Shown: piece after piece, positions 1-64,000 of the stretch
Layout: every line of letters begins with the position of its first letter
How positions within the stretch are numbered: position 1 is the stretch's first letter
DNA from: a virus
IMG/VR virus record: IMGVR_UViG_3300045988_174698
Direction: 5' to 3' (one strand)
Length of the DNA stretch: 64,000 bases
Translations under genes and position numbers: made by a program
The notes under the pieces: generated by a model
Databases searched by the model: none
Told to the model about the DNA's origin: nothing
What the model saw: only the letters and a program-made list of their open reading frames with translations

Positions 1-313
1 AGCCTTATATAAATTCAAAGCTAGAGGTTTTACCATTTCCTCTAGAGCAGTAATAGTATCAATCGTTATGTACTTATAAGGCTTCCCTGCATCGATAATT
101 GCTTTACAGACCTCTTTAATTTCTTTAACTGTATTTACTTTAATCTTAAGTGCATCGATGTAATCAGTTCCTGACTCACAATCGATAATTAGATTGTTAT
201 CAAGAGTTGAAAGAGTTGTAGTCTTCCCGCACTTTGGCAATCCATAGAGAATCAAGTACTTAGGGTCTTGTGTAGATGCTGGAATTTTACTTTTTGGTAA
301 TTCAATAGCCATA
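1..313 (-). CDS. RecA-fold ATPase, Sak4-like; C-terminus runs off the window
   Basis: Minus-strand ATG at 311-313. N-terminus MAIELPKSKI...LILYGLPKCGKTTTLSTL has a Walker A (GxxxxGKT) followed by ...IIDCESG, the pattern of phage Sak4/AAA ATPases. Confidence 0.45.
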
Positions 314-395
314 TTTAAAAACTAAATTTATTTTTATTTCTGATATCTTTTACTTCTGTATCTTTTACAGTTGCATCTTTTATTTCTTTTTCTCT

Positions 396-1271
396 TCATG
401 AAAGATAATCTTCATAATTTATTTCATCAGATTTAGGTAAAGGATAGAACATACCAATACTACCTTTGAAAGCAGACATGATAATTCTATTAGAAATACC
501 ATATCTATTTTTAAGAATAATAATAGATCTACAAATATCTTGTAAACCATATCCTTCGTTATCATCCATTATTTTATATCCTCTATAACTTTTTAGTTGG
601 GTTTTAAATGGACTAAATAATGCAATACAAATATCAGCAGCTTGTAATGGTTCACCTGACTGTTGAATTTCATCCGCAGTAGGCTCTTCCATACCAGCTT
701 TTCTCCTATCCATAGTTGTACTATTTCTATTTTCTTGCATTATAATATCAAAACTAGTCTGACATAGTTCTCTAAATCTGACACAATAAGTTGATATAAG
801 ATCCATTTCTTCTTTTTTAGTTCTCCCTTTTTGAGGATTTACTAAAAGTAAATGATCAATAACAACATTAACTATTTGATTAGGATTATTTGGGGTATAT
901 ATAGTTCTTTTTCCATCAGGACTTTTTTGAAAGGTTCCTAAACTTTTGTGGAGTTCCATCATTTCTGCATAAAAAGAATCTGCAGAGAGCTGTTTATCAT
1001 ATATAATAAACTTATGACTTATAGATTCTAATCACTCACGAGCTTCAATTACATACTTATGTATATCATCTGGTAACTTATTAGTAAATGACATTAATTG
1101 CATATATGTAACTTCAATACCATAAGTTTCATATAAATATAAGCTTAATAATTTCGCCAACAATGTATTAGCACTTAGTTCAAGAGAAAAATAAACTATA
1201 ATTATATCTTTATCTGGATAATCTTTTAAAATACGATATATATCTGTATATATAACAAAAGAGCTTTTCAA
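396..1271 (-). CDS. DnaB-family replicative helicase, C-terminal part (second segment of a split gene)
   Basis: ORFs 396..962 and 1032..1271 join in-frame through one TGA (..EAREW LESIS..). DnaB motifs present: IIIVYFSLELS (H1a), SGEPLQAADICIALF (H4, like SGxIEQDADxV) and ILKNRYG. The track's start is a TTG; the Walker A lies in the separate ORF at 2663..2860. Confidence 0.6.
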
Positions 1272-1708
1272 TTTGTTATCTTACTTGCTTTTTATCAAGT
1301 AATTCTTATAGTTTCCTATAAGTTCAGCATATATTTTCATCTCTTTGAGATGTCGGATACTCTTGGGAAAATTATATTCTGTATAACAGGTTCATTTCCT
1401 ATGCGTTACAATATAAAATAACTGTTAAATTACTTTATTATCTCGGGGTTAACATGCTTATATACAAAATTTGGATAATTATTCTGTACATATAGTTTAG
1501 CCTTCTCCGATATTACCCGATCATTATCTCTAAAATCACTTTTAGAGACGGCAAAATTATGATTTTTAAAACACAAATATCTATAATATTTCCTATTTAA
1601 ATAAATTGTAGAATTTTCATAAATTCACTGTAAAAATTTAATACTATTATTTATATTACTTTTTATATCAAATATTAGATCACTTGTTTTATTTGCAACA
1701 TATCATGT

Positions 1709-2122
1709 TCATGAAGTATTTGAATATACTTCTATATTTTGTAAAATATTTTTAGTTCCAACAATACAACATCTTGGTTTAAAAATATTTTTACTACCTC
1801 CATAAGATAAACATCCATCACCATCAAAATATCCTCTAATAAAATGTCTTATTAAATCTTTAGATTTAAAAATATTTTCATCAGGAAATTTTAAGACATA
1901 ACTTTTATTTGGAACACATCCTTTTTCTATTAGAGCATCTTTAATATGTTTACAAGAAATAGCAAATCTACATCGTTGCAATTTATTATCAGTTCTTGGT
2001 AATCTGAAAATATTTAAGGCACTATATAATTTTTCTAGATGTTCAATATCATCAATATGTAAATCACATGAGATATGGTAAGAATTTGTAGAAACATTAC
2101 CATCAGCATATAAAAATCCCAA
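1709..2122 (-). CDS. LAGLIDADG homing endonuclease (double-motif)
   Basis: Two LAGLIDADG-type motifs, GFLYADGNV and GYFDGDGCLS, with the spacing of a single-chain LAGLIDADG enzyme. The apparent start is TTG. The gene sits between the two DnaB helicase segments. Confidence 0.75.
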   Translation of the reverse strand: MGFLYADGNVSTNSYHISCDLHIDDIEHLEKLYSALNIFRLPRTDNKLQRCRFAISCKHIKDALIEKGCVPNKSYVLKFPDENIFKSKDLIRHFIRGYFDGDGCLSYGGSKNIFKPRCCIVGTKNILQNIEVYSNTS

Positions 2123-2195
2123 TCAATATGCTTTTGTTTCTGTGTCTATTACATCAAAAAATGATTCATTTACTGTTTTACGATTTAGGTTGAAA

Positions 2196-2621
2196 TTATG
2201 TTTTTTTTAGAAACTTTGAAATAACACAACCTTGAGTATTATATAATTTACCTATTTCTTTCAGAGACATACCGTTATTAAAACAATCAATCATATTTTT
2301 TAAATCATTTAATTTAAACGTATATGATATCCTATTACTTTTATGTGATAAATAAATTCCGCATCGTTTAAATAAATTACCTAATGCAGCAGATGTACAA
2401 TTGCACAATTTAGAAACAGATTTAAGTGATATTTCAGGATTTTCATGAAATTTACATAAGGCTTCTTTAACTTTTACATCATTTACTTTATGTTTTCTAA
2501 CATTCTTAAAATAAAAATCTAAAAGAATTAAATCTACAGCTTGTTTTGAAATATTTAATTTGTTGGATATTTCAAATGAATTTAAATTTTGTTTTCTTAG
2601 TTCTATTATTTTGTTTATCAT
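2196..2621 (-). CDS. HTH DNA-binding protein (NUMOD/sigma-r4-like), probably the DNA-binding module of the endonuclease cassette
   Basis: Two helix-turn-helix-like segments (ISNKLNISKQAVDLIL; SLKEIGKLYNTQGCVISKFLKK). Offset by +1 from the LAGLIDADG ORF, across an A8/T8 run at 2201-2210. Confidence 0.4.
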   Translation of the reverse strand: MINKIIELRKQNLNSFEISNKLNISKQAVDLILLDFYFKNVRKHKVNDVKVKEALCKFHENPEISLKSVSKLCNCTSAALGNLFKRCGIYLSHKSNRISYTFKLNDLKNMIDCFNNGMSLKEIGKLYNTQGCVISKFLKKT

Positions 2622-2662
2622 AGTAAAAATTATTTTAATTTTTACTACAAAAATAACGCAAT

Positions 2663-2860
2663 TTATTTATATTTACAAATATCTGCGTTGGAAATTATTA
2701 ATGTTTTACCAACACTACTTTTGCTGAATATTAACTTATATACACCCTTTTTAAATCCTCCAGTATAAAAATCCAATTTTAAAAGTCCTGTTTTAAGACC
2801 TATATTTTTACCTTCTCGCCCGTCTTCTATTTTAGAATATAATTCACCTACCAAACTCAT
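2663..2860 (-). CDS. DnaB-family helicase segment with Walker A (first segment of the split gene)
   Basis: GLKTGLLKLDFYTGGFKKGVYKLIFSKSSVGKTLI matches the DnaB linker-to-Walker-A region (GLxTGfxxLD...GKT). Ends at a TAA 13 residues after GKT. The FSLEM motif that should follow is 1.4 kb downstream in 396..1271. Confidence 0.55.
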   Translation of the reverse strand: MSLVGELYSKIEDGREGKNIGLKTGLLKLDFYTGGFKKGVYKLIFSKSSVGKTLIISNADICKYK

Positions 2861-3437
2861 TAAGCAGTTGTATAAACATCATAAGTACTGGTCTTACCTT
2901 GTATTCCCTTTATTTTCATTTCTTCAAATTCGTTTCACTTACAAGAAGCAACAAATTCAATAATAGGAATATGAATAAGATCGTTCATCTTAGCTCATTC
3001 TAATATTTCTAATACTTCTCGATGTTTACTTATACTATGTCCAATAGTTGATGCGTATCAAAAATAAAATTCTTGTAGGTCTCTAAATTTCTTAGAAATA
3101 TTCTTTAAACTTACAATCTTACCATTTAGATACAACGTTGTTGGATATGCATCCATTAACTCTTGTCCTAGTTCTCCAGTTAATTTGAAATACTGTTTAA
3201 TAAAGTTTTGATTAAACTCTATTTCATCAGGATCATAACAATTAGGATTATAATTTTTCTTAATAATACCTTTATCTTTGAGAGAATTAAATAAACTTTT
3301 TAATCGTTTATTACCACCGCCGTCATATCATTTTTTGAAATAAATACGATGCTCTTCGGGATTTCCATTCTCCGTTTGTGCAATAAAAGTTAAATATATT
3401 AACAAAACTTCATCAGCTGTTAACTGATATTTAGTCA
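2858..3437 (-). CDS. hypothetical protein (replication module), TGA-containing
   Basis: Hand translation MTKYQLTADEVLLIYLTF...KKWYDGGGNKRL... continues through several TGAs to a TAA that overlaps the ATG of 2663..2860 (TAATG). No motif recognised. Confidence 0.35.
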
Positions 3438-3513
3438 TAATATTTAAAATCGTATCTAACTTCATATAATACGATTAAAAGTAAACATAACGTATTACGT
3501 TAGATCTTTTAAA

Positions 3514-4740
3514 TTAAAATCTATGCTCTATATCTATTATGCCTTTTTTGGGTCTAGTAGAAATTTCACCACCTTTTAATATAACATCTAACTGATCCTC
3601 AGTAATAGTTATATAAGATTGATTTTTATTAGCATTATTATACCAAGTTTCTTCTATAGAACCTGCAATCACTAATGTAAAAAACTCTGCAACTTTATTT
3701 TCTTCAGCTCTGATCACACGGCCAATACGTTGTAAATCAGTCACTTGAGAAGAATTACAAGTTAAAGCTATACCTACAGATAATCCTCTAACATCGACAC
3801 CAGCATCTAAAGCTTTAGGAGAAACAATATTAGCAATATCTAATTGATTAAATGTTTCAAGAATTATCCTATTCTCCTTTTTCTTTTTCTGACTATGCAA
3901 TACTAAAGCTCTGGATTTAAATAGCTCTGCATCTTTTACAGTAGCAGTAAACAATATACATTTCTTGTCTCGTCTAAAGTCTAGAATTTTATTTGCAACT
4001 TCAAACTTTTTAGGATGAGTCATGACAAAAGTTTTTCTTAGCTTTAAGTATTTCATAAACTGAGCTAAGTAACCTCTTGTAGCATTATCACTTTTCCCAT
4101 ATTTTTGGGCCCAAATTTTCACTTTTTTGGGTGATTTGACTAGCTCCATCACCAGTTTAAAATCGTGATTAAAATAAGCAAATAATTGTTGGAATTTAGC
4201 ATTATACTCTCAATATTTCTCCATATCAACATGTAGAAGAACTTTATATTTTCTGTATGAAGATACTCAGTTATTTTCTAATGCTTCTTGTAATGTAATT
4301 GTATCACAAACGGACATAAACTGTTCAAGATATTTTTCACTTCCGTCTAGACGAGTTCAGGTTGCAGTTAATCCTAAAAGATATTTATATTCTACACAGT
4401 TATAGATATTGATAAACGTTGGACTTGCAGATAAATGACATTCATCTACTACTAATAGGTCAACTTGATATTGCTGTTTAATGATAGTATTAAATATTTC
4501 TACTTTACAGATAGAAAAGAGTTGGTTTTTAGCCAACTCTCTATTTCACTGTTCTTTCAAAACATCTGTTGGAACAGCAACTAATACTACGATGTTAGGA
4601 TTATGCTTATATAACGATTTAATAACCATTATACTACCATTTGTTTTACCTGTGCCAGTAGCCCATTCAAGTACACCTCTACCACCACTATCAATTCAGC
4701 GTCTTATACCTAATTTCTGACGTTCATCTCGGTTCATTAA
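3514..4740 (-). CDS. SF2 DEAD/DEAH-family helicase
   Basis: N-terminus MNRDERQKLGIRRWIDSGGRGVLEWATGTGKT (Walker A), VVDECH (motif II), GLTATWTRLDG (motif III, W from TGA), QRIGRVIRAEE (motif VI). ORF 3514..4152 fuses with upstream sequence through in-frame TGAs. The plus-strand ORF 4481..4720 is its antisense. Confidence 0.75.
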
Positions 4741-4773
4741 AGATACAAAAAATTGATTAGATATAAAAATAAG

Positions 4774-5619
4774 CTACTCTTTACTTGTCTTTTCGAATAT
4801 TGGTAATGAAATATTTCTTGCTTCAGCCACTCGTTGAATATTAGACATTAAAGTATTCCACTTATTTATATGATAATTTAAATCATTATCTAGTAATAAT
4901 AATATTTTATCTCTTAATGTCTTTAGTGCTATAGTTGACAATGATGTTATCTTAGGTAAAGAGGTAAGCTGAACTAATGAACGAAATTCAGAAAAAGATA
5001 ATCCTGTTGGACTAACTCGAAGTTTAATATCAGGATTCAAACATAATCTTTCCTTAATTACTTCCATTCTGTTACGTACTCTACCATTACTATCGACTTC
5101 AGTTAACTCAACTTTTTCATTATCCGTTAACCAGATTCCCTGTGCTAAAATAAACTTATCAGTAATCATTTTCTTATTTAAAATATCAAGTTTATCAAAA
5201 CAAGCATCCATGAGACGACTAACAGTTACCTTTTCAAAAATAGGCTCAAGTCCGTTAAATAGAACTGAAATAGATTCATTAAGTATATCCTCTTCATGGG
5301 AGGATCTTTGACTATTTATATAGTCAAGAATATCTTTCTTTGTTTTTATATCAGTGTCGCAGTCATGTAAAAGATATCTTACAAATAACTCTGTATTACA
5401 AGCATCCCATGTTTTATGAATATTTTCTCGAACGACATATTTGCCAGGGGACCATGGATATGCATTGTATAACATCTCATAACAGTGCTTATATCATTTC
5501 CTAATATCCTCTTCAGGAGCTGTCATAAGTTTTACATCGTTACCACTTTTATCTTTCCACGTTAATGATTCAATAGAATCCATTGCATTTTGCAATTTTT
5601 CACCAAATTCTGTACACAT
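4774..5619 (-). CDS. hypothetical protein
   Basis: ORF 4774..5475 extended upstream through a TGA to ATG at 5617-5619 (MCTEFGEKLQ...RKWYKHCYEMLYNAYPW...). Frame rechecked. Confidence 0.35.
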
Positions 5620-5620
5620 A

Positions 5621-5971
5621 CTATTCAAAATCAAATTTGTCTTGTTTACATATATCTTTTTGTTTAAAGAAATTTATAAAATAATTATTACTATAATTAT
5701 AAACTTCAAAATCTTTTAAATTTTTGTTAAACCATTGAGTAATACCACCTTCTACATATTGAAATTGTAAATAACCAATATCACCAACTTCAAATGTGTC
5801 AGCAGTATCCCAGTTTGGAAGTCTAACTATTGTAACATATTTTAAATCGTCTGTTATATTACGATTTAGGTCTTCAACAACTATTTCAGTATATTGTCCT
5901 TCTTGAATAACTAAGACTTTACAATATATTGTTACTGCTTGAGGGGTCATAATATCTACAGGTTTCTCCAA
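5621..5971 (-). CDS. hypothetical protein
   Basis: 116-aa ORF that overlaps the 3' end of the phosphatase gene in another frame. Confidence 0.25.
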   Translation of the reverse strand: MEKPVDIMTPQAVTIYCKVLVIQEGQYTEIVVEDLNRNITDDLKYVTIVRLPNWDTADTFEVGDIGYLQFQYVEGGITQWFNKNLKDFEVYNYSNNYFINFFKQKDICKQDKFDFE

Positions 5972-6725
5972 TGTTAAGTAATCGAAAACAGATATTATCT
6001 ACAATTTGAGTATTGCTTTGATGGAAATGTCCGTAATACCAATTAGTAATATCATCTTTATAATCATTATAGACCATATCCATAACAGCTCTCTCCTCTT
6101 CTATATCCTTTAATAATTCATTATCGTATTGAGAGTATTCTTGTACAATACTCCCCTTATCTGTTGGAAAACAGAATGAAGGAGCTGTATGAGAACAGAT
6201 AATATCTATTTTCGCGTCAACTTTAGGTCGATATTGAACAATCTCATCTTCCCAATACGTCTTAGGAGCATTTAGTTCTGCTGTTTTATAGTCACAATTG
6301 TGGTATTTCATATATCTAACTATATTAATAGAATCATTTTGCTTCCTAATAATTCTATCTACAGATGTAGCTCCTCCAATACAAAGAATATTAAGATTAC
6401 AAGTATTTATTATAGTATAGTCAGGAACACACTTAACATAATTAGTATTAATAAGTTGATTATTGTAATACTTTGGGTTACTGTGATTTCCTCTAATCCA
6501 AATAAATATATCATTAAACTTTTTTAATACTTTATGTAATTCAGGAATTACATGATCTGTATAATGTTTCAACCGCTCAAATCCTATTCCCACATCTCCG
6601 CAGAAAATAAATACTGAATTTTTTATTTTATATTGTCGAATGTTATGTATAACTGAATTCCATTCTCCATGTACATCTCCAACTATGTAGAGGTCTTTAA
6701 TTGTATCAGGAAGATTAATTGTCAT
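5919..6725 (-). CDS. calcineurin-like metallophosphoesterase (PP-lambda-like Ser/Thr phosphatase)
   Basis: YIVGDVHGE, FCGDVGIGFER and IRGNHS match the DxH(x)nGDxxDRG(x)nGNH(D/E) metallophosphatase signature. Confidence 0.7.
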   Translation of the reverse strand: MTINLPDTIKDLYIVGDVHGEWNSVIHNIRQYKIKNSVFIFCGDVGIGFERLKHYTDHVIPELHKVLKKFNDIFIWIRGNHSNPKYYNNQLINTNYVKCVPDYTIINTCNLNILCIGGATSVDRIIRKQNDSINIVRYMKYHNCDYKTAELNAPKTYWEDEIVQYRPKVDAKIDIICSHTAPSFCFPTDKGSIVQEYSQYDNELLKDIEEERAVMDMVYNDYKDDITNWYYGHFHQSNTQIVDNICFRLLNIGETCRYYDPSSSNNIL

Positions 6726-6731
6726 AACTTT

Positions 6732-7100
6732 TTATATTTTAAACCCTCCGATTGGAAGGGAATAAATATTATATATTTTGTTGTTAATCTCTATATAATA
6801 TCTATAAGAGTTAAAGATATTAATACAATAAAAGAAATCATTCTTATACTTAATATCACTAAGATAAAAACCTGATTCCTCAGGATTACTAAGGAGGTTT
6901 ATATCAAATTTTAGAAGATATGGTGGCAAGATATTCACATTACTAACTCTAAAGACTATTTTTAGTCCAAAACTAGAGTTGAATTTAGTTTTTGGTACAT
7001 ATGCTAAAACCCCCATTCCAATATTTAAACAGGCTTTAATATAATTAGGATCGTTTCTGTAGACAATTATGTTATGCTGTTCGAGCTCCAGTATAGACAT
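6732..7100 (-). CDS. hypothetical protein
   Basis: 122-aa ORF with an ATG at 7098-7100. Confidence 0.3.
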   Translation of the reverse strand: MSILELEQHNIIVYRNDPNYIKACLNIGMGVLAYVPKTKFNSSFGLKIVFRVSNVNILPPYLLKFDINLLSNPEESGFYLSDIKYKNDFFYCINIFNSYRYYIEINNKIYNIYSLPIGGFKI

Positions 7101-7333
7101 ATTAGTCTATGTCCCCCTTATAGGCATTCATAATAGATTTTTCCTTTCTAAGCCAAGAGCCCTCAGTTTCTGCTATATCTAGAACAGTACGGCTAATAGA
7201 TTCTTCTTCTCAATTTTGTTATCGTATAGCTTTTTATCTATACTTCTTATACTTCATTTTGTATAAGCTCAGCATATATTTTCACCTTCAGCATTATCTG
7301 TTAAGGGTAAATCACTCGTGGGTTTATTTTATT

Positions 7334-8089
7334 CTAATCTGTTATTAATATTTTATAATTGTATATAGCGTTGTATACCTGTTTTGGAAGTATATTTTTA
7401 TATTTGTTAGCATATTCCTTTAAACAAGTTTCTTTCTCTTTCTTATATGCTCTAAATGCTTCTTCAATTGTAGAAAAAGTTCCTATATGTTTTTTCTTAT
7501 TCATATAATTAATTTGAGCAATTATTTTATTGTTTTTGATTCTGACTCCTATTGGAGTATTACCTCTACATTGAAATCTTCAAGTAATAGCAGTATTAAT
7601 TTCCTTTGGGATAAAACAACAATAATTTGGAGAATAAATTTTATTCCCCTTTACCAAGAAATCTTTATCTATAACAAATGATTCGTTATAACAATTATTA
7701 TAATATCAATCCGCAAAATTCTGAAAATTTAATCATTCTTTACAAACAGTAACTCCATTTCCTCCATAGTTATTATATTCAGAAACTTTTGGACAATAAC
7801 ATCTTCCAATCATTTCTTTCCAAATTTTATAACATCGAGTTTGTTTACCGTTTTTGTCCCTAGAACTATATTGACCTACTCCAAAATAACCTGTATTGTA
7901 TACAGACGGATAATAAGGATCTTTAACAGAGCCCTTTTTTAGATTACCTAGTTCAGCAGTAATAATAGTACCTGTTTGTAAAAATTTTATTATTACATTA
8001 TATGAATCAATATATTCTAGAATGATAAAATCTCCAGAACTATTTGAAGTCATAATTTTATTTTCATAAATTTGTTTGTTATTTGTCAT
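7334..8089 (-). CDS. HNH-family homing endonuclease with a C-terminal AP2 DNA-binding domain
   Basis: ORF 7733..8089 continues through two TGAs to a TAG at 7334-7336 (frame checked). VIDKDFLVKGNKIYSPNYCCFIPKEIN is HNH_3-like. IGVRIKNNKIIAQINYMNKKKHIGTFSTIEEAFRAYKK is an AP2-type fold typical of phage homing endonucleases. Confidence 0.6.
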
Positions 8090-8264
8090 ATATCATAATA
8101 TTTTAATTAAACATAGTACAAATATACAAATTCTTTTTCAGACTCACAAACAAATTAGGTTCAAAACCTATGCGTTACACTGACTTAATATATTACTATT
8201 AAGTTTAGCACGGTATTAGCATCTCAGCCTTCACCGTTTTTGATTTATTCTATTCTACTTATTT

Positions 8265-8753
8265 CTAAGCAGACAGGCAGAATTCTACCTGCTCGTTCAC
8301 TAACATTCCTGTCTCTTTATCATGCCCGTTCAACCAGTTGAAAGTAGCCCAATCACCCTCATTAGCTGCCTGATCAACAATTTCATTAATCATTTGAGTA
8401 GTTTCAATTTCAAGATCTACGGTAATCTTAAAAGGATCTACCATATCTTCTACTTTCTTATCAAACTGCTCAATAGTAGGATAAATATACTCTGCATCGT
8501 TTTCATTTAAATATTTACGAATCCAGGAATGATGTAAGTATTCTTCATCTGCTCTTTGTTTGTAATACTCTTCAAGAATAACAAATCCTCTAACACCAAA
8601 GTAATTTGCAAAATTCATATACGCATTATGATTTTGCAATTCATGCTTAAGCTGACGAAGAAGTAGTTTTTGAATTTCAGCACTTAAAGTGCATTCACGC
8701 CTACTAACATCCTTTTTTTCTACAGGATCATTTGCCTCATTTTTAATTATCAT
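8265..8753 (-). CDS. ferritin-like (non-haem ferritin/FtnA-type) protein
   Basis: QRADEEYLHHSWIRKYL and INEIVDQAANEGDWATFNWLNGHDKETGMLVNEQVEF align with FtnA ([48 protein letters not shown]). Length of 162 aa fits a ferritin monomer. Confidence 0.6.
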   Translation of the reverse strand: MIIKNEANDPVEKKDVSRRECTLSAEIQKLLLRQLKHELQNHNAYMNFANYFGVRGFVILEEYYKQRADEEYLHHSWIRKYLNENDAEYIYPTIEQFDKKVEDMVDPFKITVDLEIETTQMINEIVDQAANEGDWATFNWLNGHDKETGMLVNEQVEFCLSA

Positions 8754-8790
8754 AAATTAGGTAATTTAAAGTATAAAACATTTCTGCTAT

Positions 8791-9153
8791 CTAGTAAATA
8801 TGGATCCTATAACTCTCCTTATGAAAGTTAAAGTTAAATTGATTTTCTAATAACCAGTAAATATCAGAATATATTGTGAATTCATGATTATTAATTACAA
8901 ATCTAAGATAAAAACTATCATAAGTAGTTAAATACCTAGTAATATCTTGTTCATTAAAATAGATAATATTTATACCCTCAAGTTCAATACCTAGATTCTC
9001 AAACTCTACTGTAAGTTCTTCACTTCCACAAACATCAATGATAGATAAGTACCTGTCAGTTTTTTTGTCAAATCCATCAATATACCCTCTCATGTGATTA
9101 ACACAAGGATACCAATGATTACCAACTCTTTTCAAAGTTAATTTCTTTTCCAT
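8791..9153 (-). CDS. hypothetical protein
   Basis: 120-aa ORF; its start overlaps the RNase H stop. Confidence 0.3.
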   Translation of the reverse strand: MEKKLTLKRVGNHWYPCVNHMRGYIDGFDKKTDRYLSIIDVCGSEELTVEFENLGIELEGINIIYFNEQDITRYLTTYDSFYLRFVINNHEFTIYSDIYWLLENQFNFNFHKESYRIHIY

Positions 9154-9155
9154 AG

Positions 9156-54240: not shown

Positions 54241-54266
54241 TTATAAATAAATTTAATAAATACATA

Positions 54267-54709: not shown

Positions 54710-54712
54710 TAA

Positions 54713-55762
54713 ATGAATACAATATTTTTTGGGCAGAATGTTCCTATACAATCAGCAACAAAGGTTAAAATATATTATATCAATAAAACTAAACTTCCTA
54801 TTAAAGTCAGTATTCGTTGAAGAGATAGAGATGTTCTAAATTATACTACTGAAACTTTAAATCTACTAGCTGCGGGAATAGTTGAACAAACAGTAGCATT
54901 AAAAGAATTTGAATCAACCTCTGGAAAGGGTCTAGTAGTTGAGCCAATAACGAATGCAATTATCCAGTCTAGTACAACCTATCCTAATTTATTTATTAAA
55001 GCTACAGTAAAAGAGGTAGCAACAGGAGATACTATAGGGACATTTAACAAGGGAGGAACTATTAGTCCTATAATGGCTACAAAAGAGTATCAAGCAACTG
55101 TTACTTTTGAATATAATTCTGGAATTTATATCAATAGTACTGCTGCTAGTTATGTTCCTTCTGTTACCAGCAATCGCCCTACAATAACTGTATTTAGTGA
55201 TGCTGATTCATATGGTATTACTGGAATATTTACACAAGACACAGCAGTAACTTATGCTGATATAGAAGGAGATGGTTATACTCATTATATTAAAGTAAAT
55301 AACTGTAAGAATATTGCATTAGATAGATATATTAGTGGAACTAATTCTGGATCTAACTCTAGTATTAGTTATTCAGATTTATATCCAACGGATATAGGAA
55401 CAATAGATATCGGCAAAACTTTATTTTTATGAGTAAAATCATTTACATATGAAAAAGAATCTACTCCTACTCCTGATCCTTCAATTAGTTGTGATGTTTA
55501 TGTATGTAGTCGCAATAATTTAAATAACACAGAATGTAGTATAGATATATATGAGGGGTATGGAACAACAGGAGTTCGTTTAGCCAATCTATCACTGGCC
55601 CCTGGGGAAGGAAATTGAGTTTCATATCAAGGTGGATATAGAACATTCAGTTCCATACGTTTAAATTCGATTTTAAAGGGAACCCAGATAACTATCGCAT
55701 TAAATGGGTCTCAAGTAAGTGATTGAGTAAATGAAACAACTAAATATGTTTGAATTAATTAA
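54713..55762 (+). CDS. tail fibre / receptor-binding-like structural protein
   Basis: 349 codons with five TGAs (frame checked); includes track ORF 55073..55432. Ser/Thr/Gly/Asn-rich beta-like sequence (TITVFSDADSYGITGIFTQDTAVTYADIEGDGYTHYIKVNNCKNIAL). Confidence 0.4.
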
Positions 55763-55770
55763 AAATAAAA

Positions 55771-55799
55771 AGGGAGCTACTTAGCTCCCTTTTTATTTT
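55771..55799 (+). terminator. rho-independent terminator (usable on either strand)
   Basis: AGGGAGCT-actt-AGCTCCCT followed by TTTTTATTTT. Lies between the plus-strand structural gene and the minus-strand lysis cassette. Confidence 0.6.
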
Positions 55800-56168
55800 C
55801 ATATTGTTTTGCGCTTATAATAAAGCATACTAGACTTAGTAATATATATATAGGTTGCAGTACTTTAGTACTTGTTATAAAAAATATTCCCATAAATATC
55901 AATCCTATAACATATCAAAATTTATACATTTCCAAATTTTTTTAAAAAATCTCATAATGTGAGATTTGAATTTTTTATTGCATTTTGTTTTAAAGCATCC
56001 ATACTATCTTTTAGGTACACCTCCAAGTTTATCAGCTCATCTCTCTGAGAAAAACGAGTAATAAGATCTTTTAGACTTTGGGGTATGGACAGCTGCTCAA
56101 ATAATACTAGGCAGTCCTATAATTAGTAAATAGAGGGGGCCTAAATATAAAGATTGTCGAGTATGTCC

Positions 56169-56390
56169 TCATTCATGTTCTTTTGTGTAATTTCTGTTAT
56201 ATTTCCAACTTGATTCTCCCATTAAGATATATAATCCTAATGAAATACCTCCAGGAAAGTCTCCCGCATAAATTGGAATTTCCCTAAAAGTTTCTTTGTA
56301 CTCTACATTATAGCACCAAGTTAAAATAAGACCGAGAAGACACTGTGGAAATTCCCATATCCATCTCAGTATTTTAATATACCATTTCAT
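56169..56390 (-). CDS. hypothetical protein
   Basis: 73-aa ORF with a hydrophobic core. Confidence 0.25.
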   Translation of the reverse strand: MKWYIKILRWIWEFPQCLLGLILTWCYNVEYKETFREIPIYAGDFPGGISLGLYILMGESSWKYNRNYTKEHE

Positions 56391-56519
56391 ATAATATTTA
56401 ATTTATTATTTATAGTAAATTTGTTTAAATTGTTTTCAAAGTGAGTATTGAGCATCTATTGCTTCTTGTTCTCAAGGTCTTAACATATAATCCAATGAAG
56501 AATCAAACTGCTGTCCCTT

Positions 56520-56885
56520 TCATAAGAATACTAGTTTAGAGTCTTTTTTCACAAGTTCAAGATCTCTCCTTTCGTATTGATCAAAATGTTGCATTTCATG
56601 ACATATAATAGTACTAAGACTATCAGATAACTTAGTTTTTAATAATAGATTATATGTATGAGGCACTGGTGTTTTATCTAATAGAGCTTGTAGTTCACAT
56701 TCCTCAGTTGAAAATTTATTTAAGATTTTATCATTATATTGTACTAAGATATTTGCATTAGTATAGTCAAATATTTTAGTTCCTATGACTTTAATTAATT
56801 CCTCCACATCATATTGTTTTGGAGATTCAATTAATGAGGTTACTTTAAATGTCTCAGGGAACTCTAATTTAGATCTTTCCTTCAT
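56520..56885 (-). CDS. hypothetical protein with HExxH motif
   Basis: 121-aa ORF; IICHEMQHFDQYE contains HEMQH. Confidence 0.3.
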   Translation of the reverse strand: MKERSKLEFPETFKVTSLIESPKQYDVEELIKVIGTKIFDYTNANILVQYNDKILNKFSTEECELQALLDKTPVPHTYNLLLKTKLSDSLSTIICHEMQHFDQYERRDLELVKKDSKLVFL

Positions 56886-56916
56886 ATTATTTAAAAACTA
56901 GTTATTATAACCTCTA

Positions 56917-57354
56917 TTAAACTCGTAGTTCTCCATATTGGTTTCTCATTCTTGGAGATATTCCTAAATGTACCCATGTAGTAGACCCACTTTTTTCAAT
57001 AAAGCATTGATCTATAATGACTTTATTTCTAGTAAAATAATCTTTAATAAAGTTAAAGAAGTTTTCTACTCCTTTAACAGAAGTATCTTCAGGTTGTAAA
57101 TCTACTGCTTCATAGTATTGATGAGAGCTATTACTTACGCCCCCCACAGCTTTATTAAGGCTTGGCGATCTATATCCAGAAGTAATAGTAATAGCAGAGC
57201 CTCATGCTTCTCTTAATGGATCTAAATATTCTATAGCTAGTTTACTTAGTTTTTCTATTCCCTCTCATGTAGGTAGATTTTCTATTTTTTTACTAATAGC
57301 TGTATCACTTCTTAAAAGTTCACTTAATTCAAAATATTTAGGGGTATTTATCAT
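56917..57354 (-). CDS. peptidase M15 family lysin (L-alanyl-D-glutamate / D-Ala-D-Ala peptidase type)
   Basis: ORF 56917..57147 extends through two TGAs to ATG at 57352-57354 (frame checked). ...PLREAWGSAITITSGYRSPSLNKAVGGVSNSSHQYYEAVDL...TTWVHLG carries the M15 Zn-ligand pattern SGYR...H...D...H. Confidence 0.7.
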
Positions 57355-57455
57355 AATTTAATCTATAATATATAATTTACCAAATTTCTCTAAAATCATA
57401 TAAATATTTATTTGCGCTTTGATTTTCTTCCATGTCGTCATTTTTATACACCTCC

Positions 57456-57734
57456 TTACTTCTTATTTCATTTACGGCTATTGGCAGCAAATGTTGCTCG
57501 TTTTCTAATTGCTGGATCGGGGGATCTTTTGCCTTTAGCTATACACTCACTAGTTACTTTCCCACCACAATATTCTGTAAACTTACCTCTATTTTTCTTT
57601 TTAATATGAATCTTAGAACCTTTTTTCATCATTTCTATGTACCCACTTGTAATATTATCTAGTCCGAGATTGTTATGATACTCTGTACTATATACCTCTA
57701 CAATTTTGTTTAAAATGTCATTGTTATATTTCAT
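57456..57734 (-). CDS. hypothetical basic protein
   Basis: Track ORF 57468..57734 continues through one TGA (..ANSRKWNKK) to a TAA. Confidence 0.25.
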
Positions 57735-57902
57735 ACTTTATAAAATAATTAATAGGATTATTATCTAGTAATATATGTTTTTGCAAAAATAATTATTTAT
57801 TTAGATATTTGCAAGTATTTGGATAAATTATTTGGATATCAGAAAGATTTATTATATATTTGCATCATTCAAGTAAAATTATAAAGAGTTATATATATAA
57901 AT

Positions 57903-58595
57903 ATGGCAAAAACAAAACCTGATATAGATTCTGGACTTTCATGACTAGAAAGAATCCTACAATTATGTAAAGAGTATGGAGTATTTAATATTTTGAAGGG
58001 GTTATTTATTCTAATTATGTTAAGTTTAACACTTAGGATTTGTTACAATCCTAGTTTTTTATTTGACAAATATACTGACTACATGACTCAAAGACATGCG
58101 AAAGAGTTACATAAAAGGACAGAATATGATCAACAAATAAAAAGTCTCCTGCCTGTATATTTATATAAATATCATGCAGATAGGATATGAATTATTCAGT
58201 ACCATAATGGTATTATGGACTGACAACATGGAACTATGAGATTTGAATTATGTAATGATGAAGTTGAATCAATTAAAAATCAATATAATGATTTTAATCT
58301 AACCTGGATTAATCTTCCTTATTATTTAAAGACGAACGAAGTATTTATAGGGGATATGGTTAAATTAGATAGTATTGATTCAACTCTTTATACACAACTC
58401 AAAAAAAATAATGTACAATATTTAGCCTGTACAATTATAAAAGATAATAGTGGTTATCCAATTGGTATTTTAGGAGTGACTTGGAAAAATATTCCACCAA
58501 ATATTGATAGATTACAAAATAAAATACATAACTATCTTATAGATGATAGAGCAGATATTAAAACTCTTATCCAATCTAATTATAATAAAGAATAA
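57903..58595 (+). CDS. hypothetical membrane-anchored protein
   Basis: 230 codons with three TGAs; fuses track ORFs 57993..58190 and 58236..58595 (all in frame 0). Transmembrane helix LFILIMLSLTLRICY. Confidence 0.35.
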
Positions 58596-58604
58596 AAGTA
58601 TAAT

Positions 58605-59543
58605 ATGCCTAAACTTAGAGGGAGTAAATTAAAATATGTTAATGGGTATGCAGTAGATAAAGAAAATGATAATATTATATACTCTGATGAAAAGCATATT
58701 TATATGGATAAGACCGATAATTCGAAATATGAATCTGTAACGACAATAATAGGACAGTACTGTCAAAAATTTGATTCAGACTTTTGGTCATCATATAAAG
58801 CTTGTGAGGCGTTATTAGACCCCACAGTGTTTTACCCATTAAAATCAAAACTTCTTTCTTCTAAAAAATGAAAGGAGTCTTATATTGAAGAATATGGATT
58901 AGATCCTGTTGAATTTCTAAATAAGAAATCTGAAATCCTACAAAGTTATGAAGATAAGAGGAATGCTAGTACGGAACGTGGTACTAAAATTCATGCTATG
59001 ATGGAAGATCTATTTTATCAAGGGGATAAAAAGGCAATAAGCAAATATGCAGGAGGAGGAACTTTTGAGGTAAAGAAGGGATATTATAAACTAGATATTG
59101 ACAGGGCAATTTATCCTGAGTTTCTTATAAGTTATGAATTTGACGAATACTTAAAGATTGCTGGTCAAATAGATTATTTACAGATAAGTGATAATGAGAT
59201 AGTTTTGTTAGATTGAAAGACTAACGGTAAGATTGATAAAGAGTCTTATTTTGATAGAACTACTAAGAAAAGACAGATGATGCTCTCACCATTAGAAAAT
59301 ATTATGGATTGTAATCTATGTCACTATCAGTTACAACTTAGTATGTACGCATATCTTCTTCAGAAGATTAATCCTAAATTCAAAATAAAAAAGCTAGCAA
59401 TTGTTCATTTTGATCACGACGGTAATGAAACTGAATATGAAGTAAAATATTTAAAAGATGATATTGCCAGACTTCTTTTATATCATAGGAAGAAGAATAA
59501 AATAAAAGCAGAACTTGATAGAGACAAACCAATAGTATTTTAA
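58605..59543 (+). CDS. PD-(D/E)XK nuclease (RecB/YqaJ/Cas4-like fold)
   Basis: 312 codons with two TGAs; fuses three track ORFs in frame 0. ERGTKIHAMMEDLF...GQIDYLQISDNEIVLLDWKTNGK gives the D...(D/E)xK core, with W from TGA in the usual DYKT position. Confidence 0.5.
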
Positions 59544-59549
59544 AATATA

Positions 59550-59789
59550 ATGATTATGGAAAATGTAGATGATTTATATGAAAATAGAATGAAGATTTGC
59601 AAAGAATGTCCTCTATATCTAGATAGTCCTATGGGAGCTAGATGTAATTCTAGGCTATATTTATCCGAAGCTGATAAAAAGACAGTAAGTGATAGACCCA
59701 AATTAGGATATAAAAGAGGTTGTAACTGCATGTTACAGAGAAAATTACGTATGCCCGCTGCAAAATGTGTTGTAGGGAAATGATAAGAT
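59550..59789 (+). CDS. small Cys-rich (zinc-ribbon-like) protein, paralog 1
   Basis: CKECPLY...ARCNS...GCNCMLQ. Ends W(TGA)-TAA. Confidence 0.3.
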
Positions 59790-59791
59790 TT

Positions 59792-60010
59792 ATGAGAAAA
59801 ATATTACATACAATTAAAAATATTATAATAGGGTGATATCGTAGATTCTTTAAACCTATCCCTGATTGAGCTGAAAGAAGATATAAGGTATGTTTAAACT
59901 GTCCTCATAAAGAAAAATTATTTGGAGAATACTGATGTACTTTATGTGGATGTAATTGCTATAGTAAATCATTAGTAGAAGATGAACAATGTTATGATAA
60001 TAGATGATAA
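59792..60010 (+). CDS. small Cys-rich (zinc-ribbon-like) protein, paralog 2
   Basis: 72 codons, five of them TGA: MRKILHTIKNIIIGWYRRFFKPIPDWAERRYKVCLNCPHKEKLFGEYWCTLCGCNCYSKSLVEDEQCYDNRW. The ORF track misses it entirely. Confidence 0.3.
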
Positions 60011-60037
60011 TGTATAATTTTAAAATAATAATGAATT

Positions 60038-60562
60038 ATGAGTAAAGAAAAGTATCTAGGAACTGATTACTATCAGTTAACAGGAAAACATTTAATGGGC
60101 AATAATATTAAACGTGAAATTGATCCTGAAGCACTTAAAAGGGCACAAGAAAAATCAGAAAGAGATCAAATGGAGTATGTAGCTAATTTAATGGCAAAAG
60201 ATAAAGATTGCAAACCATATGAGAATAAGAAAATTGTTCCTACGGCAGGTAGAGTAGTTGTATTACCTTACGAAAAGAATCCTTATCGTTTACCATTACA
60301 TGAAACCACCTCTGGACTTATCTTAGGTGATTTTGAAACATCTGCAACATATAAATCACAGGAAACTGGAGAACAAGAAGCCTCACAGCGTGGTATTTGG
60401 TGTTGTAAAGTTATTGCTGTTGGTAATGAATGTAAAAGTGTATTAGAAGGGGAAGATGTATATATTAATTTTACATTAGCTGCGCCACTCCCCTTTGGTG
60501 GAAAAGGATACTATACAATCAGTGAAAATAATATTATTTGTAGTATAAGAGATAATGAATAA
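60038..60562 (+). CDS. GroES/Hsp10-like co-chaperonin fold protein
   Basis: KIVPTAGRVVVLPYEK...TTSGLILGD...CKVIAVGNECKSVLEGEDVYINF follows the GroES pattern (KPLxDRVLV...TxSGIVLP...GxVVAVG...VKxGDxVLF) after an N-terminal extension. Confidence 0.45.
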   Translation: MSKEKYLGTDYYQLTGKHLMGNNIKREIDPEALKRAQEKSERDQMEYVANLMAKDKDCKPYENKKIVPTAGRVVVLPYEKNPYRLPLHETTSGLILGDFETSATYKSQETGEQEASQRGIWCCKVIAVGNECKSVLEGEDVYINFTLAAPLPFGGKGYYTISENNIICSIRDNE

Positions 60563-60590
60563 GATGCACTAAAGGTGAATATAAAAAGTT

Positions 60591-60842
60591 ATGGATATGA
60601 ATGAAAATTTGAATAAAGAAGGTAACTCATACCTATTTTACACCCCTGGTCAGCTTGTAACCTTAAAACATAAGGAGCTAAATTCTCCAATAATGCTTAT
60701 TCAAGAGAAAGTTACAAGGCAGTTTAAACAGGGAGATCAGATGTATAATATCTTCAAGGGTATGAAATGTATTTGATTTGATAAAAATAATGTGCTGCAA
60801 GAAGCAGTATTTTCAACAAAAGATTTGGAATTATATAAATAA
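60591..60842 (+). CDS. hypothetical protein
   Basis: Track ORF 60591..60776 extended through one TGA. Confidence 0.25.
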
Positions 60843-60850
60843 ACAATCAT

Positions 60851-61076
60851 ATGACTTTACAAATTGATGGATTTATAGTTACAGGGACGCCTGATGAGGT
60901 AAATACTTTTATTAAACTGTATCAGGTAAAACAATATACCATTGTTAATTCCCAACAACCAATTATACCATTATATTATTCCCCTGATACTGATATTAAA
61001 AAGTGAGAGATAACTTGTAAAGATAGTAGTAATATTAGTAGTAATATTAATGGTAGTGTAGTTAAACCAGAATAAG
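60851..61076 (+). CDS. hypothetical protein
   Basis: 75 codons with one TGA. Confidence 0.25.
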
Positions 61077-61077
61077 T

Positions 61078-61938
61078 ATGAATAAAGAAGACTTAACTCA
61101 GTTTATAGAGTGACTCCCAGTTAATATTAATGAGTTTAAAGATAAAACTCCTGATGAAGTAGTCACTATTCTAAATAAATTAGCCCAAACAGAAGAGGGG
61201 TTAAATGAAATATCTGGTCTTATTAGTCAATTTAAACAAAAACAGATGTTTAAATTTGGGGGTAAATTAGGGCAACTTATTAATAAATTTCAACAAGGAG
61301 GAAAATCTGATCAGAGAAAATCTGATAAAGTAAGAAAAAATTTTCATGGAGTTAGTTTATTTGAATATGGTCCTAATAAATATAAAACTGCAAGAGGCAC
61401 TTTAGTTAGAGATTTAAAACCAGGAGTTCATCAAGAAACTCTTCCTAATGGTATAGGTCTAAGACAGATTACTAGAAATAATACTACAACATCAGAATTA
61501 GTATCTCCAGATAAAAGGGATACATTATATATTAATAATGCAGATGCTGGAAGAATTGACAGTAATATTAATGATGCTGGTATATTAGGTAAATTAGGAT
61601 TACGGACACCAACCCCTGTAAGTTCTAATTTTAGAAGATTACAAGGTATTTTTAATGCCAAAAAATTTAATACAGGAGGAGAGGTAACTAAAGATGGATA
61701 CAAGTCTAGTTCTGTAACAAATCCTGATGGTTCTATAAAACAAACTTTAAGATATCCTTCTGGGAAAGAAGAATATAGAACTATAAGTAGAGACAAACAA
61801 GATACTATATATACTAATAGTGTCAATGGTATTACTAGAAGAAATAATCCTAAATGATACCACTTTGTTGACAAAGAAGCTAATAAAAAAGGCTATGCAG
61901 AAAGACAAAGACGATTTAATGAACATTACAAAGAATAA
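61078..61938 (+). CDS. hypothetical virion/late protein
   Basis: 287 codons with two TGAs; includes track ORF 61246..61857 (frame 1). Ends at a TAA at 61936-61938. Confidence 0.35.
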
Positions 61939-62522
61939 TGACAGATATATTCCTTTATAATAATACTACAGGATCTCTTGAACTTAATGTTCATGAGATC
62001 CTACTTGTAAAGGAGTTTGAGGCATTATGAGACTTAGATAGAAATAAATGTAGTGAAGATCCTACAGGTAAAAAGAGACTACGAGCATGAAAAGAATTTA
62101 AATATATTTGATTATTTGCTGATTGGAAGAGTCCATATCAACAATATTTAGAGATGGAAAAACACAAAGCAGCTATGGAAGATTCAGGACTATCTGATGA
62201 AGAATGAAATGATCCCACTTTTAGAGCTGCCGTTAGAAAATATATTGAAATTAAAGATTCTTCTCGTATTCTAAGTCTTATAAAAACTGCCTTCAGAACT
62301 CTTGAAAAGATGAGAGTATCATTAGACAATATTGACCTTGAAGAAAGAGATCCTGTAAATAACAAACCAATCTGAAAAGCTAAAGATATTCTTGATAGTA
62401 TTGGTTCTATCGGCACTATGACTGATAAGTTAAAGGAACTAGAACTAAACTATAAGAAAGATCAAATTGAAAGTAGTTCTAAAGTTAGAGGTGGTTTGGA
62501 GCGAGGATTTATGGATGAGTAA
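61938..62522 (+). CDS. hypothetical protein; small-terminase candidate by position
   Basis: 195 codons with five TGAs (frame 0). Lies immediately upstream of the large terminase. Confidence 0.3.
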
Positions 62523-62528
62523 TGAACT

Positions 62529-64000
62529 ATGGCGAAAAAACTAAGTATTGAAGCTGAAATGAGAGCTGCTCAGAGAGATATGAAGAAGAAGTTGAGTGGT
62601 GAAGATAAGGAAGAGGTAAAGAAGGTTAAAAAGAAAGCTAAACCAGTAAAAGAACAATATAAGGAAATAAAAGAATCTCTTAAAGAAAAAGAGGCTCCTA
62701 AGGAAATTGCTTTTAAAGATAATTATGAAGAGGAATTAATTAGGGAATTATTTAAAGGTGATATTACTGTTTCCCAAGCTCTGGGTAAAGAAGATGAGCC
62801 TGAACAACCTAAAAGAGAGAAAAGTGGATTGTGGGATTATGTTCTCGAAGATGAAATAGAATTCTTTGACCCTGAATGTAGTTATGAATTGACTGGTTAT
62901 AGACCTATAGATGAAACTCATGGATTAGATTTTGATCCAGCACCTTTTTGTGAAGCGGGAAGAGTCTATACTGAAACTGGTCACTATACTGAATATCCGT
63001 CTGGATCTAAACCATATGCTGATTTCTGACAAGAACAATTAGATAGATGCATTAATGGTTATACGATTGGTAAGTATAGAATTACTGGAGATAATTATTT
63101 CTTCCTTAATTTTTATAGGATGCCTGTTGTAGACGATTCTAAAAAACTGGCGGAAGCTTCTGGAGAAGGATTTCCAAAATTTGTAGCAGAGCAATATAAA
63201 TTCTTTCATTATTTTGAAATGTGCGAACTACTTAAAAAAGACTGCGTTGCACTAAAAAGCCGAGGCATAGGCTGAAGTGAGATAGGAGCTTGTTTAGGAG
63301 TTCGTCCATTTATAACAGGAAGAAATTTTAATTCAACATATATTACTTCTTCACTAAACTATCTGGAGCCGACATTAAATAAATGTTGAGCCCAGCTTCA
63401 TTTTTTAAATGGAAACACCAACGGTGGATTTAGAAGACCTATGATGAAGATTAACAATGCTCTTCATAAAAGAACTTCTCTTACTGATAATGAAAATCGC
63501 GAATGAGGCAGATTAAATAATATAGAAGGAATTGTAGCAGATAATATTAACAAAGTCCGTGGTATTCGTTCTAATAGACTTTTCTGAGAGGAGGGAGGGT
63601 CCTTCAAAAATCTAGAGACTGCTTGAATTAAAGGAGAGGCATTAGTAACAGTTGCGGGTGCTAGAAAAGGCATTATGAGTGTCTGAGGTACAGGAGGTGA
63701 TTCAGATGCTTCTGCACTAGAGGGTCTATCTAAAATGTTTAATAGTCCAAAAGAATACAATGTACTTCCATATAAAAATAATTACTCTGAGGATGGTGAA
63801 GTTCAATATACTGGTTATTTTATACCCGCTTTTAATATTATGCTTAAAAAAGGTTTCTATGATAATAGAGGAGTTACAGATAGGAAAAAAGCAAGAGAAC
63901 ATTATGAAACTGAAAGAAAAAAGAAGTCTGGGCAAAATTTATTAGATTATTGTGCAGAATTTTGTTTCACCCCTAGTGAGGCATTATTAAAACAAGGTGA
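62529..64000 (+). CDS. terminase large subunit (ATPase domain), runs past the window end
   Basis: At least 490 codons in frame 0 with nine or more TGAs, no TAA or TAG. Walker A-like CVALKSRGIGWSEIGACLG. No other ATPase was seen in the late module. The antisense track ORFs 63464..63760 and 63726..63935 are artefacts. Confidence 0.55.

Follow-up and report, generated by a model that had tools for sequence, protein, structure and literature searches.

The sequence analysed here, IMG/VR record IMGVR_UViG_3300045988_174698, is 64,000 nt long with a guanine-plus-cytosine (GC) content of 30.6%, and we refer to the whole of this stretch as the window. On its minus strand, at 12789-13226, lies a transfer RNA (tRNA) gene that is split in the anticodon loop by an intron and whose joined exons form a cloverleaf with the anticodon UCA; the gene stands exactly between a block in which tryptophan (Trp) is written almost entirely as TGG and a block in which TGA is a common sense codon, in the same orientation as its neighbors. 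A preliminary description of the window had proposed that UGA is translated as Trp (code 4) over positions 1-64000, in early and late genes alike. When open reading frames (ORFs) were called with TAA and TAG as the sole stops, in-frame TGA was found to interrupt conserved genes of either strand, and full-length proteins were restored once it was taken as a sense codon. By Pfam and PHROGs assignment the interrupted ORFs include replication genes on the minus strand and lysis and terminase genes on the plus strand, as had been described (Table 1), and M15 peptidase, HNH and LAGLIDADG endonuclease genes were likewise interrupted.

Tallying TGA against TGG by block showed the recoding to be block-wise and not spread across the whole window. 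The two recoded blocks, R (replication and nuclease genes) and L (lysis and packaging genes), differed sharply in TGA/TGG usage from block E between them, a stretch that the preliminary description had not remarked on and that is compatible with the standard code (Fisher test, E vs L p=1e-17; E vs R p=4e-8). Greedy ORF density rose from 0.71 to 0.91 in block R and from 0.66 to 0.96 in block L when table 11 was replaced by table 4, and from 0.76 to 0.79 in block E, while a control with TAG as sense gave no comparable gain. The table 4 reading thus improved density, a comparison that the preliminary description had called for, but recoding over the full 1-64000 range did not survive, since block E holds 91 TGG and 16 TGA codons and only about eight of those TGAs are sense. 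Smaller corrections concern the terminase, of which the part in the window carries seven TGAs against the at least nine first counted, and a tiny gene given as 59792..60010 with five TGAs, where the ORF at 59765-60010 has four. No release-factor domain was seen among the ORFs scanned, as stated before. Replication genes are indeed recoded, but their label as "early" was not established, these genes lying downstream of the suppressor on the same strand. Between blocks E and L, the region 44000-50700 has low ORF density under both codes (0.51-0.59), contains the minimum of cumulative GC skew and is where gene orientation diverges; it may be a replication origin or a regulatory region.

Table 1. 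Features of the window by position, with strand and content.
Feature	Position	Strand	Content
Block R, recoded replication/nuclease block	1-12,780	-	TGA 32, TGG 23; AAA_24, split DnaB, SF2 helicase, metallophosphatase, ferritin-like, RNase H, HNH/LAGLIDADG endonucleases
DnaB_C	315-1271	-	in-frame TGA inside conserved gene
SF2 helicase	3514-4737	-	in-frame TGA
RNase H	9156-9626	-	in-frame TGA
Suppressor tRNA, exon 2	12789-12847	-	C35-A36-A37-A38, anticodon stem 3' half, extra arm, T arm, acceptor 3' strand, G73; CAAA-ACCGU-AUU-GUAGGG-CUCCAAA-CCCUAC-GGU-CUCUG-UUCGAAU-CGGAG-AGCUCGU-G
Predicted group I intron	12848-13193	-	346 nt, no ORF; between U34 and C35
Suppressor tRNA, exon 1	13194-13226	-	acceptor 5' strand, D arm, anticodon stem 5' half, C32-U33-U34; GCGAGCU-UA-GUGU-AAUGGUA-GCAC-A-GCGGU-CUU
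Bacteroidota-type promoter motif	13250-13280	-	TTTG-N19-TAtcTTTG, 24 nt upstream of the suppressor tRNA
Block E, standard-code-compatible block	13,296-44,000	-	TGA 16, TGG 91; amidoligase/GATase cluster, IMPDH-like, HD, SPFH, tRNAs, tmRNA
cREC-domain gene	22997-23350	-	1 sense TGA
Probable TGA stop	23347-23349	-	overlaps the next gene's ATG (ATGA; context AGATGA)
LicD	27140-28018	-	4 sense TGAs
HNH gene	31251-31628	+	3 sense TGAs
Possible TGA stop	36229-36231	-	single TGA between two in-frame ORFs, 35821-36486
Probable TGA stop with back-up	37531-37533	-	penultimate codon, then TAG
Probable TGA stop	38249-38251	-	1 nt ahead of the next ATG; in-frame TAG 12 codons on
Block L, heavily recoded lysis/packaging block	50738-64000	+	TGA 53, TGG 14; HTH_36, glucosaminidase + tail lysozyme, exonuclease, GroES-like, TerL
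Glucosaminidase + tail lysozyme	51988-54240	+	750 aa; 11 TGA, 0 TGG
ORFs including M15 peptidase	55.8-57.4 kb	-	counted with block L
PD-(D/E)XK exonuclease	58605-59543	+	in-frame TGA
TerL, N-terminal 490 aa	62529-63998	+	7 in-frame TGAs; phrog_6681, E=4e-35

Default ARAGORN and Rfam at gathering scores detected 12-15 tRNAs in the window, none with the anticodon TCA. With introns enabled, ARAGORN placed a tRNA at c[12788,13226] and gave its intron 344 nt, and our parse of the sequence by hand set the limits at 12789-13226 with an intron of 346 nt. The gene was overlooked by ordinary finders because the intron splits the anticodon, so that, contrary to the preliminary description, a tRNA(UCA) is present, and inside the window, where the earlier suggestion had been of a suppressor encoded outside it. 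The predicted ligated exon junction reads GGUCUUCAAAACC; the spliced anticodon loop is CUUCAAA, with anticodon UCA, and the CCA end is not encoded. ARAGORN read the spliced window tRNA as "tca" and did the same for 19 of its 20 homologues, spliced or intronless, leaving its call for the last (L048) unassigned. The spliced RNA, 92 nt long, has a five-helix cloverleaf as its minimum-free-energy fold (-34.1 kcal/mol). Supporting this structure, base pairing holds in 96% of the cells of a 21-sequence alignment, and at 17 of the 27 pairs both sides vary; none of 500 shuffles matched the observed values, slid controls collapsed, and covariation backs every arm except the near-invariant D stem. The discriminator G73, at the last alignment column, is invariant in the 21 homologues.

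Other candidates for a UCA tRNA were rejected. A plus-strand "tRNA-SeC(tca)" at 39374-39460 appeared among dozens of false calls when ARAGORN was run at a low threshold, and had no Rfam support; the long Rfam tRNA matches at 42925-43029 and 42661-42789 both lack a UCA loop. These two are unusual in their own right. The first (minus strand) has a Trp-like acceptor (A1-U72, G73) and a Bacteroidota-type promoter of its own at 43041-43072, and in the place of the anticodon arm holds a 7-bp stem with a GGCA tetraloop, plus an extra hairpin, so that this tRNA-like gene has no anticodon; BLAST against the loci of the retrieved relatives found no homologue. The second (minus strand), which scores 32.8 bits with the Rfam tRNA model, resembles tRNA-Leu; its "anticodon" loop is 6 nt long (CUAAUA), and its variable region contains three extra hairpins.

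The intron has the sequence hallmarks of group I, with a U closing the 5' exon, a G as its own last base, and an insertion point that intronless alleles on contigs of other phages define (GGTCTT/CAAAACC, with the slash at the junction). A 192-nt homologous intron in relative L032 matched RF00028 at 41.9 bits (E=1.7e-9), under the gathering score of 50 bits, and Rfam at E<=0.01 on five relatives did not report the long ORF-bearing introns. Counting against the assignment, the window intron itself scored 18.5 bits (E=0.027), well below that gathering score. Judged by its sequence as a whole it is probably a group I intron, and it would be removed by self-splicing to give the mature tRNA. Longer homologous introns (527-707 nt) contain either a PF11645 PD-(D/E)XK endonuclease ORF, a family we take to be that of I-Ssp6803I, or a weak HNH/EndoVII-like ORF. 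Among the intron ORFs of loci L009-L016, L018, L019 and L021, those of the PF11645 type carry TGA at codon 4 (MSD-TGA-K) and those of the HNH-like type at codon 5 (MKCE-TGA-C), and translation of these endonucleases would thus depend on the very tRNA they interrupt.

A second gene in the window is also split. The DnaB-like helicase (315-2860, minus strand) lies in a Walker-A piece at 2663-2860 and a remainder at 315-1271, and the 1.4-kb insert carries an HTH ORF (2196-2621), a promoter-like motif (2648-2679) and an ORF at 1430-2122 with three TGAs and a weak LAGLIDADG-like match (E=0.0016, under the Pfam cut-off). We regard the insert as a probable further intron; no group I intron was reported in it by Rfam at gathering scores, and searching PDB sequences with the DnaB-like fragment found nothing.

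The residue inserted at UGA was examined by retrieving IMG/VR relatives through protein homology and aligning orthologous codons. Opposite the TGA codons of the window, the relatives had TGA at 83 positions and TGG at 24, followed mostly by Tyr, Leu and Phe codons, and the TGG codons of the window gave the mirror profile, with TGG at 84 positions and TGA at 22. Three TGA columns of TerL hold W in 120/120, 120/120 and 119/120 homologues, and its other TGA columns are aromatic or hydrophobic, in a test that is partly circular since some relatives were themselves called with table 4. At TGA31 of LicD, W is found in 115 of 116 homologues of at most 48% identity, and the few of these that carry source names are all bacterial (Lachnospiraceae, Muribaculaceae, Prevotellaceae). 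The RNase H motif NMDL-X pairs with NVDLW or NIDLW in every PDB homologue shown, which bears out the preliminary alignment, and the remaining two TGA sites of this protein have W opposite in some homologues; the PDB alignments of the glucosaminidase stopped short of its TGA column. Finally, TGA and TGG together make up 1.4-1.6% of residues in blocks R, E and L alike while TGG alone falls to 0.34% in block L, as would be expected if TGA were a Trp codon. Given the codon swaps between relatives and the invariant Trp columns of TerL, LicD and RNase H, TGA is by sequence comparison a Trp codon, as first proposed.

We consider it extremely improbable that UGA is read instead as Gly (code 25), Ser, selenocysteine (Sec) or Cys. 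A long extra arm and G73 are determinants for seryl-tRNA synthetase (SerRS) in tRNA-Ser, and the suppressor has both; ARAGORN labels it SeC, and at codon 48 of the gene 11200-11808 the relatives show Gly or Ala codons. Yet its acceptor stem has 7 bp and its D stem 4 bp, both supported by the alignment, where a tRNA-Sec would have an 8/5 arrangement and a 6-bp D stem, and no SelA or SelB was seen among the ORFs scanned. The alternative residues also fit poorly with TGG as the chief replacement for TGA, ahead of Tyr, Leu and Phe, with Ser appearing once, in a doubtful ORF, and with W invariant at TerL 167/287/366, at LicD 31 and in the NxDLW motif of RNase H. Inspection of aligned residues, which the preliminary description had named as a way to expose a non-Trp code, thus gave no support for Gly, Ser or Cys.

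Unexpectedly for a UCA tRNA, a second hairpin lies 3' of the anticodon arm, in the window with the sequence GUAGGG-CUCCAAA-CCCUAC. Its loop CUCCAAA equals positions 32-38 of bacterial tRNA-Trp (UCCAAA being U33-A38). Of the Trp identity elements, G73 is in place and CCA is absent from the anticodon and found only in the extra-arm loop. Our first searches had fixed this loop, and they were repeated with the arm left unspecified to avoid circularity. The arm-free search returned 21 distinct long-arm UCA tRNAs, of which 10 had the loop CUCCAAA, 8 had GUCCAAA, and 3 had other loops containing CCA, the last three on a different tRNA body with U73. The stem of the arm covaries (GGAG/CUCC, CUGG/CCAG, CGGGU/ACCCG, UAAGGU/ACCUUA and others). 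In the same sequence context long-arm genes occurred on 22 contigs and short-arm genes on 5, and metagenomes gave 51 further distinct sequences, one with a class-II-like body. The RNA could also be parsed as a tRNA-Trp(CCA) that has gained a hairpin between positions 26 and 27, but this is less likely because the first hairpin holds the canonical place of the anticodon arm and matches the arms of neighboring phage tRNA-Trp genes except for C34U.

TrpRS (tryptophanyl-tRNA synthetase) reportedly recognizes mainly the CCA anticodon together with G73 (Himeno 1991 and Rogers 1992 are said to have shown this), and no TrpRS domain was found among the window ORFs scanned. With the loop equal to this main identity element and G73 invariant, the simplest reading is that the arm supplies CCA in cis, so that it may let the host TrpRS charge a UCA tRNA. 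Several observations weigh against such a role. Some UCA tRNAs lack the arm. The loop of a variable arm in an L-shaped tRNA is not where the anticodon is, and how it would bind the anticodon domain of TrpRS is sterically not obvious. Many relatives (L025, L027, L029, L182, L184 and others) have a canonical tRNA-Trp(CCA) 77-100 nt from the suppressor whose anticodon arm equals the suppressor's first hairpin except for C34U, and with an ordinary tRNA-Trp(CCA) alongside, the extra arm could partly reflect origin and not function; the window itself showed no canonical tRNA-Trp(CCA). It is accordingly a serious possibility, though one we would not favor, that the arm plays no part in Trp charging and is either the remnant of a duplication of, or fusion with, tRNA-Trp(CCA), for which the adjacent gene is an obvious source, or a site for a modification enzyme or for protection from an anticodon nuclease; the geometry and the five short-arm tRNAs also speak for this. 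Set against it are the identity of the loop with the main TrpRS identity element and the fixation of UCCAAA over at least three tRNA bodies and dozens of lineages above a covarying stem, a combination that argues for sequence-specific selection on the loop. Extending the charging proposal, we put forward tentatively, at not quite an even chance, that there is a widespread suppressor family in which a variable-region arm (5-6-bp stem, UCCAAA) would show CCA to the host TrpRS while UCA reads UGA, in which a mobile anticodon-loop group I intron would in many members gate maturation, with an endonuclease ORF of its own that contains UGA, and whose intron-split genes could explain part of the ~65% of code-4 phage genomes for which Borges et al. 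reported no suppressor tRNA.

The position of the suppressor gene at the boundary between blocks is conserved. In eight relatives, the 10 kb upstream of the tRNA contain 1-6 TGA against 27-39 TGG, and the sequence downstream 11-22 TGA against 19-24 TGG. Of the 107 Trp/TGA codons in block E, 91 are TGG, and in the core of the block (13.3-23.0 kb) each TGG examined is retained by relatives at 63-91% protein identity, whereas TGA and TGG swap at ~20% of orthologous positions outside the block. Four of the block E TGAs that are not among the sense codons resemble terminators (Table 1), so that with the TGG bias and the ATGA and TGAnATG junctions of this block UGA is not used genome-wide as sense alone. 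Suppression at 36229-36231 would fuse the two flanking ORFs, and the readthrough product could appear after a switch of code. What speaks against a strict separation is that LicD, HNH and cREC genes within block E contain sense TGA, which would mean that a temporal gate is leaky or that these three are expressed later.

Block E could instead be UGA-poor through history and not regulation, as a recent import from standard-code phages or bacteria with the tRNA at its edge by coincidence. The block is rich in auxiliary, "moron"-like genes (the amidoligase cluster, IMPDH-like, LicD/IspD, SPFH), and code can differ between phages sharing >90% average nucleotide identity (ANI) (Borges et al., 10.1101/2021.08.26.457843). 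We think this unlikely, however, as relatives of 63-91% identity have kept the core TGGs while about a fifth of positions swapped elsewhere, as the code boundary falls at the tRNA in all eight relatives, and as TGA apparently serves as a stop within the block.

Two gene groups of block E deserve mention. The cholinephosphotransferase-like LicD gene adjoins an IspD-like cytidylyltransferase gene (together 27140-28679, minus strand), the latter with neither TGA nor TGG. At 13296-17226 (minus strand), genes for amidoligase_2, a glutamine amidotransferase, a phiEco32-like COOH-NH2 ligase and a peptidase C26, all without TGA, form what looks like a peptide- or metabolite-modifying cassette.

The host was approached through promoters and relatives. 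The window contains 11 copies of the consensus TTTG-N18-21-TAnnTTTG where 2.39 would be expected, a count reached by none of 100 shuffles, and 10 of the 11 are correctly oriented and lie upstream of a gene or tRNA. A TTTG/TAnnTTTG motif is reportedly the Bacteroides promoter consensus (attributed to Bayley et al. in 2000). The annotated phages closest to TerL are crAss-like (31-35% identity), alongside an unannotated 117-kb phage from human faeces at 47%, and all cultured phages among the TerL matches infect Bacteroidota; a megablast search of INPHARED phages with the region 50-64 kb found nothing matching. The host is therefore most likely a Bacteroidota bacterium with the standard code, an assignment weakened by the fact that the motif behind it is short and AT-rich and the TerL relatives are distant.

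The preliminary description had offered a host that itself uses code 4 as one explanation of the recoding, and such a host, for example one of the Mycoplasmatota or related Bacilli that the phage would mirror, now seems very unlikely. It would account for TGA as Trp in replication genes as well as in late genes and for the low GC content, and one true tRNA homologue did occur in binned genomes. That homologue came from a two-loop pattern search of binned genome contigs, followed by a structural filter, in which at least 120 matches were listed; among the 120 listed, the single true two-armed tRNA (L171) was on JAEDHQ010000011.1, a 41.7-kb contig of a "Bacilli bacterium" metagenome-assembled genome (MAG). 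The contig carries phage-like genes (PhoH, dUTPase, GIY-YIG) and is therefore probably a mis-binned phage, so that the scan gave no information on the host. The promoter enrichment and the Bacteroidota hosts of the cultured TerL relatives, together with a 30-kb block whose TGG usage is preserved in relatives and in which several genes seem to stop at TGA with stop-start overlaps, make a code-4 host improbable, though they are no proof against it.

Taken together, we have good though not complete confidence in the following account. The phage would be large, like its relatives (100-176 kb), and a distant relative of crAss-like phages in a standard-code Bacteroidota host; it confines the use of UGA for Trp to part of its genome. 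It carries its own intron-split, Trp-like opal suppressor at the code boundary, with a promoter of host type, and splicing of the intron would yield the anticodon loop CUUCAAA. The UGA-poor genes could then be translated before the suppressor accumulates, while replication, lysis and packaging genes would need the mature tRNA, in line with the model of Borges et al. of a code switch in mid-infection, the divergent lysis/packaging block being the most heavily recoded. The extra arm may offer a CCA "anticodon" in cis, with G73, for charging by the host TrpRS.

One further RNA gene of block E is a candidate transfer-messenger RNA (tmRNA) at 29842-30263 (minus strand), which matched Rfam RF00023 at 52.3 bits (gathering score 47) and was not called by ARAGORN; by our own reading its tag frame gives AKNTVRKMANKVMPLATPMRAQVAFAA and then UAA, and the tmRNA of relative L018 scores 73.7 bits. 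It might rescue ribosomes that run to the ends of mRNAs once UGA is suppressed.

If this account is right, the anticodon-loop intron is a concrete reason why suppressors get missed, and annotation of such genomes needs block-aware gene calling and intron-aware tRNA models. The layout, with a suppressor between UGA-poor and UGA-using blocks and its conservation in relatives, bears on how a code switch might work, and the CCA-loop arm is a testable structural hypothesis for Trp identity without a phage TrpRS. The suppressor may also interest those working on genetic-code expansion, as a natural UGA decoder that is possibly charged by an unmodified TrpRS.

Group I introns are found in the anticodon loops of cyanobacterial and plastid tRNA-Leu(UAA), Azoarcus tRNA-Ile and Synechocystis tRNA-fMet, the last with I-Ssp6803I. 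The intron described here lies at the same site as those of tRNA-Leu(UAA), directly after position 34, and shares with known tRNA group I introns the U before the 5' splice site, the final G and, in the 192-nt homologue, an RF00028 match below the gathering score; the PF11645 endonuclease of its homologues presumably links it to the Synechocystis tRNA-fMet intron. It differs from these introns in that its host gene is a phage opal suppressor, that the intron ORFs of relatives carry in-frame TGA at codons 4-5, and that the window copy lacks an ORF and scores low.

TGA-recoded gut phages were reportedly described by Ivanova in 2014 and by Yutin in 2021. Borges et al. (10.1101/2021.08.26.457843) described TGA-recoded "Agate" phages of ~127 kb in which lysis and structural genes are recoded and replication genes variably so, with few TGA stops and recoded intron endonucleases; a suppressor tRNA could be detected in no more than ~35% of the code-4 phage genomes. 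Phage tRNA(UCA)/TrpRS pairs have also been shown experimentally to insert Trp at UGA (PMC12636597). Recoding itself is thus already known. The window resembles the phages of Borges et al. in reading TGA as Trp, in heavy recoding of lysis, structural and packaging genes and variable recoding of replication genes, in recoded homing-endonuclease ORFs, in a gene set compatible with the standard code, in a suppressor tRNA of its own and in few TGA gene ends; with the Agate phages in particular, agreement is limited to the size of its relatives and the recoding pattern. The literature searched contained no account of an intron-split, two-armed suppressor or of its placement at a boundary, which does not prove novelty. 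What we have not found described is an intron-split, Trp-like opal suppressor with a covarying UCCAAA arm at a code boundary; in the phages of Borges et al. the suppressor is not known to be split by a group I intron, to lie at such a boundary or to bear an extra arm resembling the Trp anticodon arm.

Another parallel is offered by the TrpRS:tRNA-Trp(UCA) code-change modules of Jade phages (Borges et al., 10.1101/2021.08.26.457843; PMC12636597), which likewise involve a Trp-like phage tRNA(UCA) with G73. Unlike those modules, the window has no TrpRS or RF1 gene among the ORFs scanned, and the CCA-loop arm in cis may take the place of a dedicated synthetase. The code 4 of Mycoplasma and mitochondria is also read by a tRNA loop CUUCAAA that decodes UGA as Trp, but there the change is genome-wide and RF2 has been lost, whereas here it is block-wise, some UGA codons apparently still serve as stops, and the decoder is supplied by the virus.

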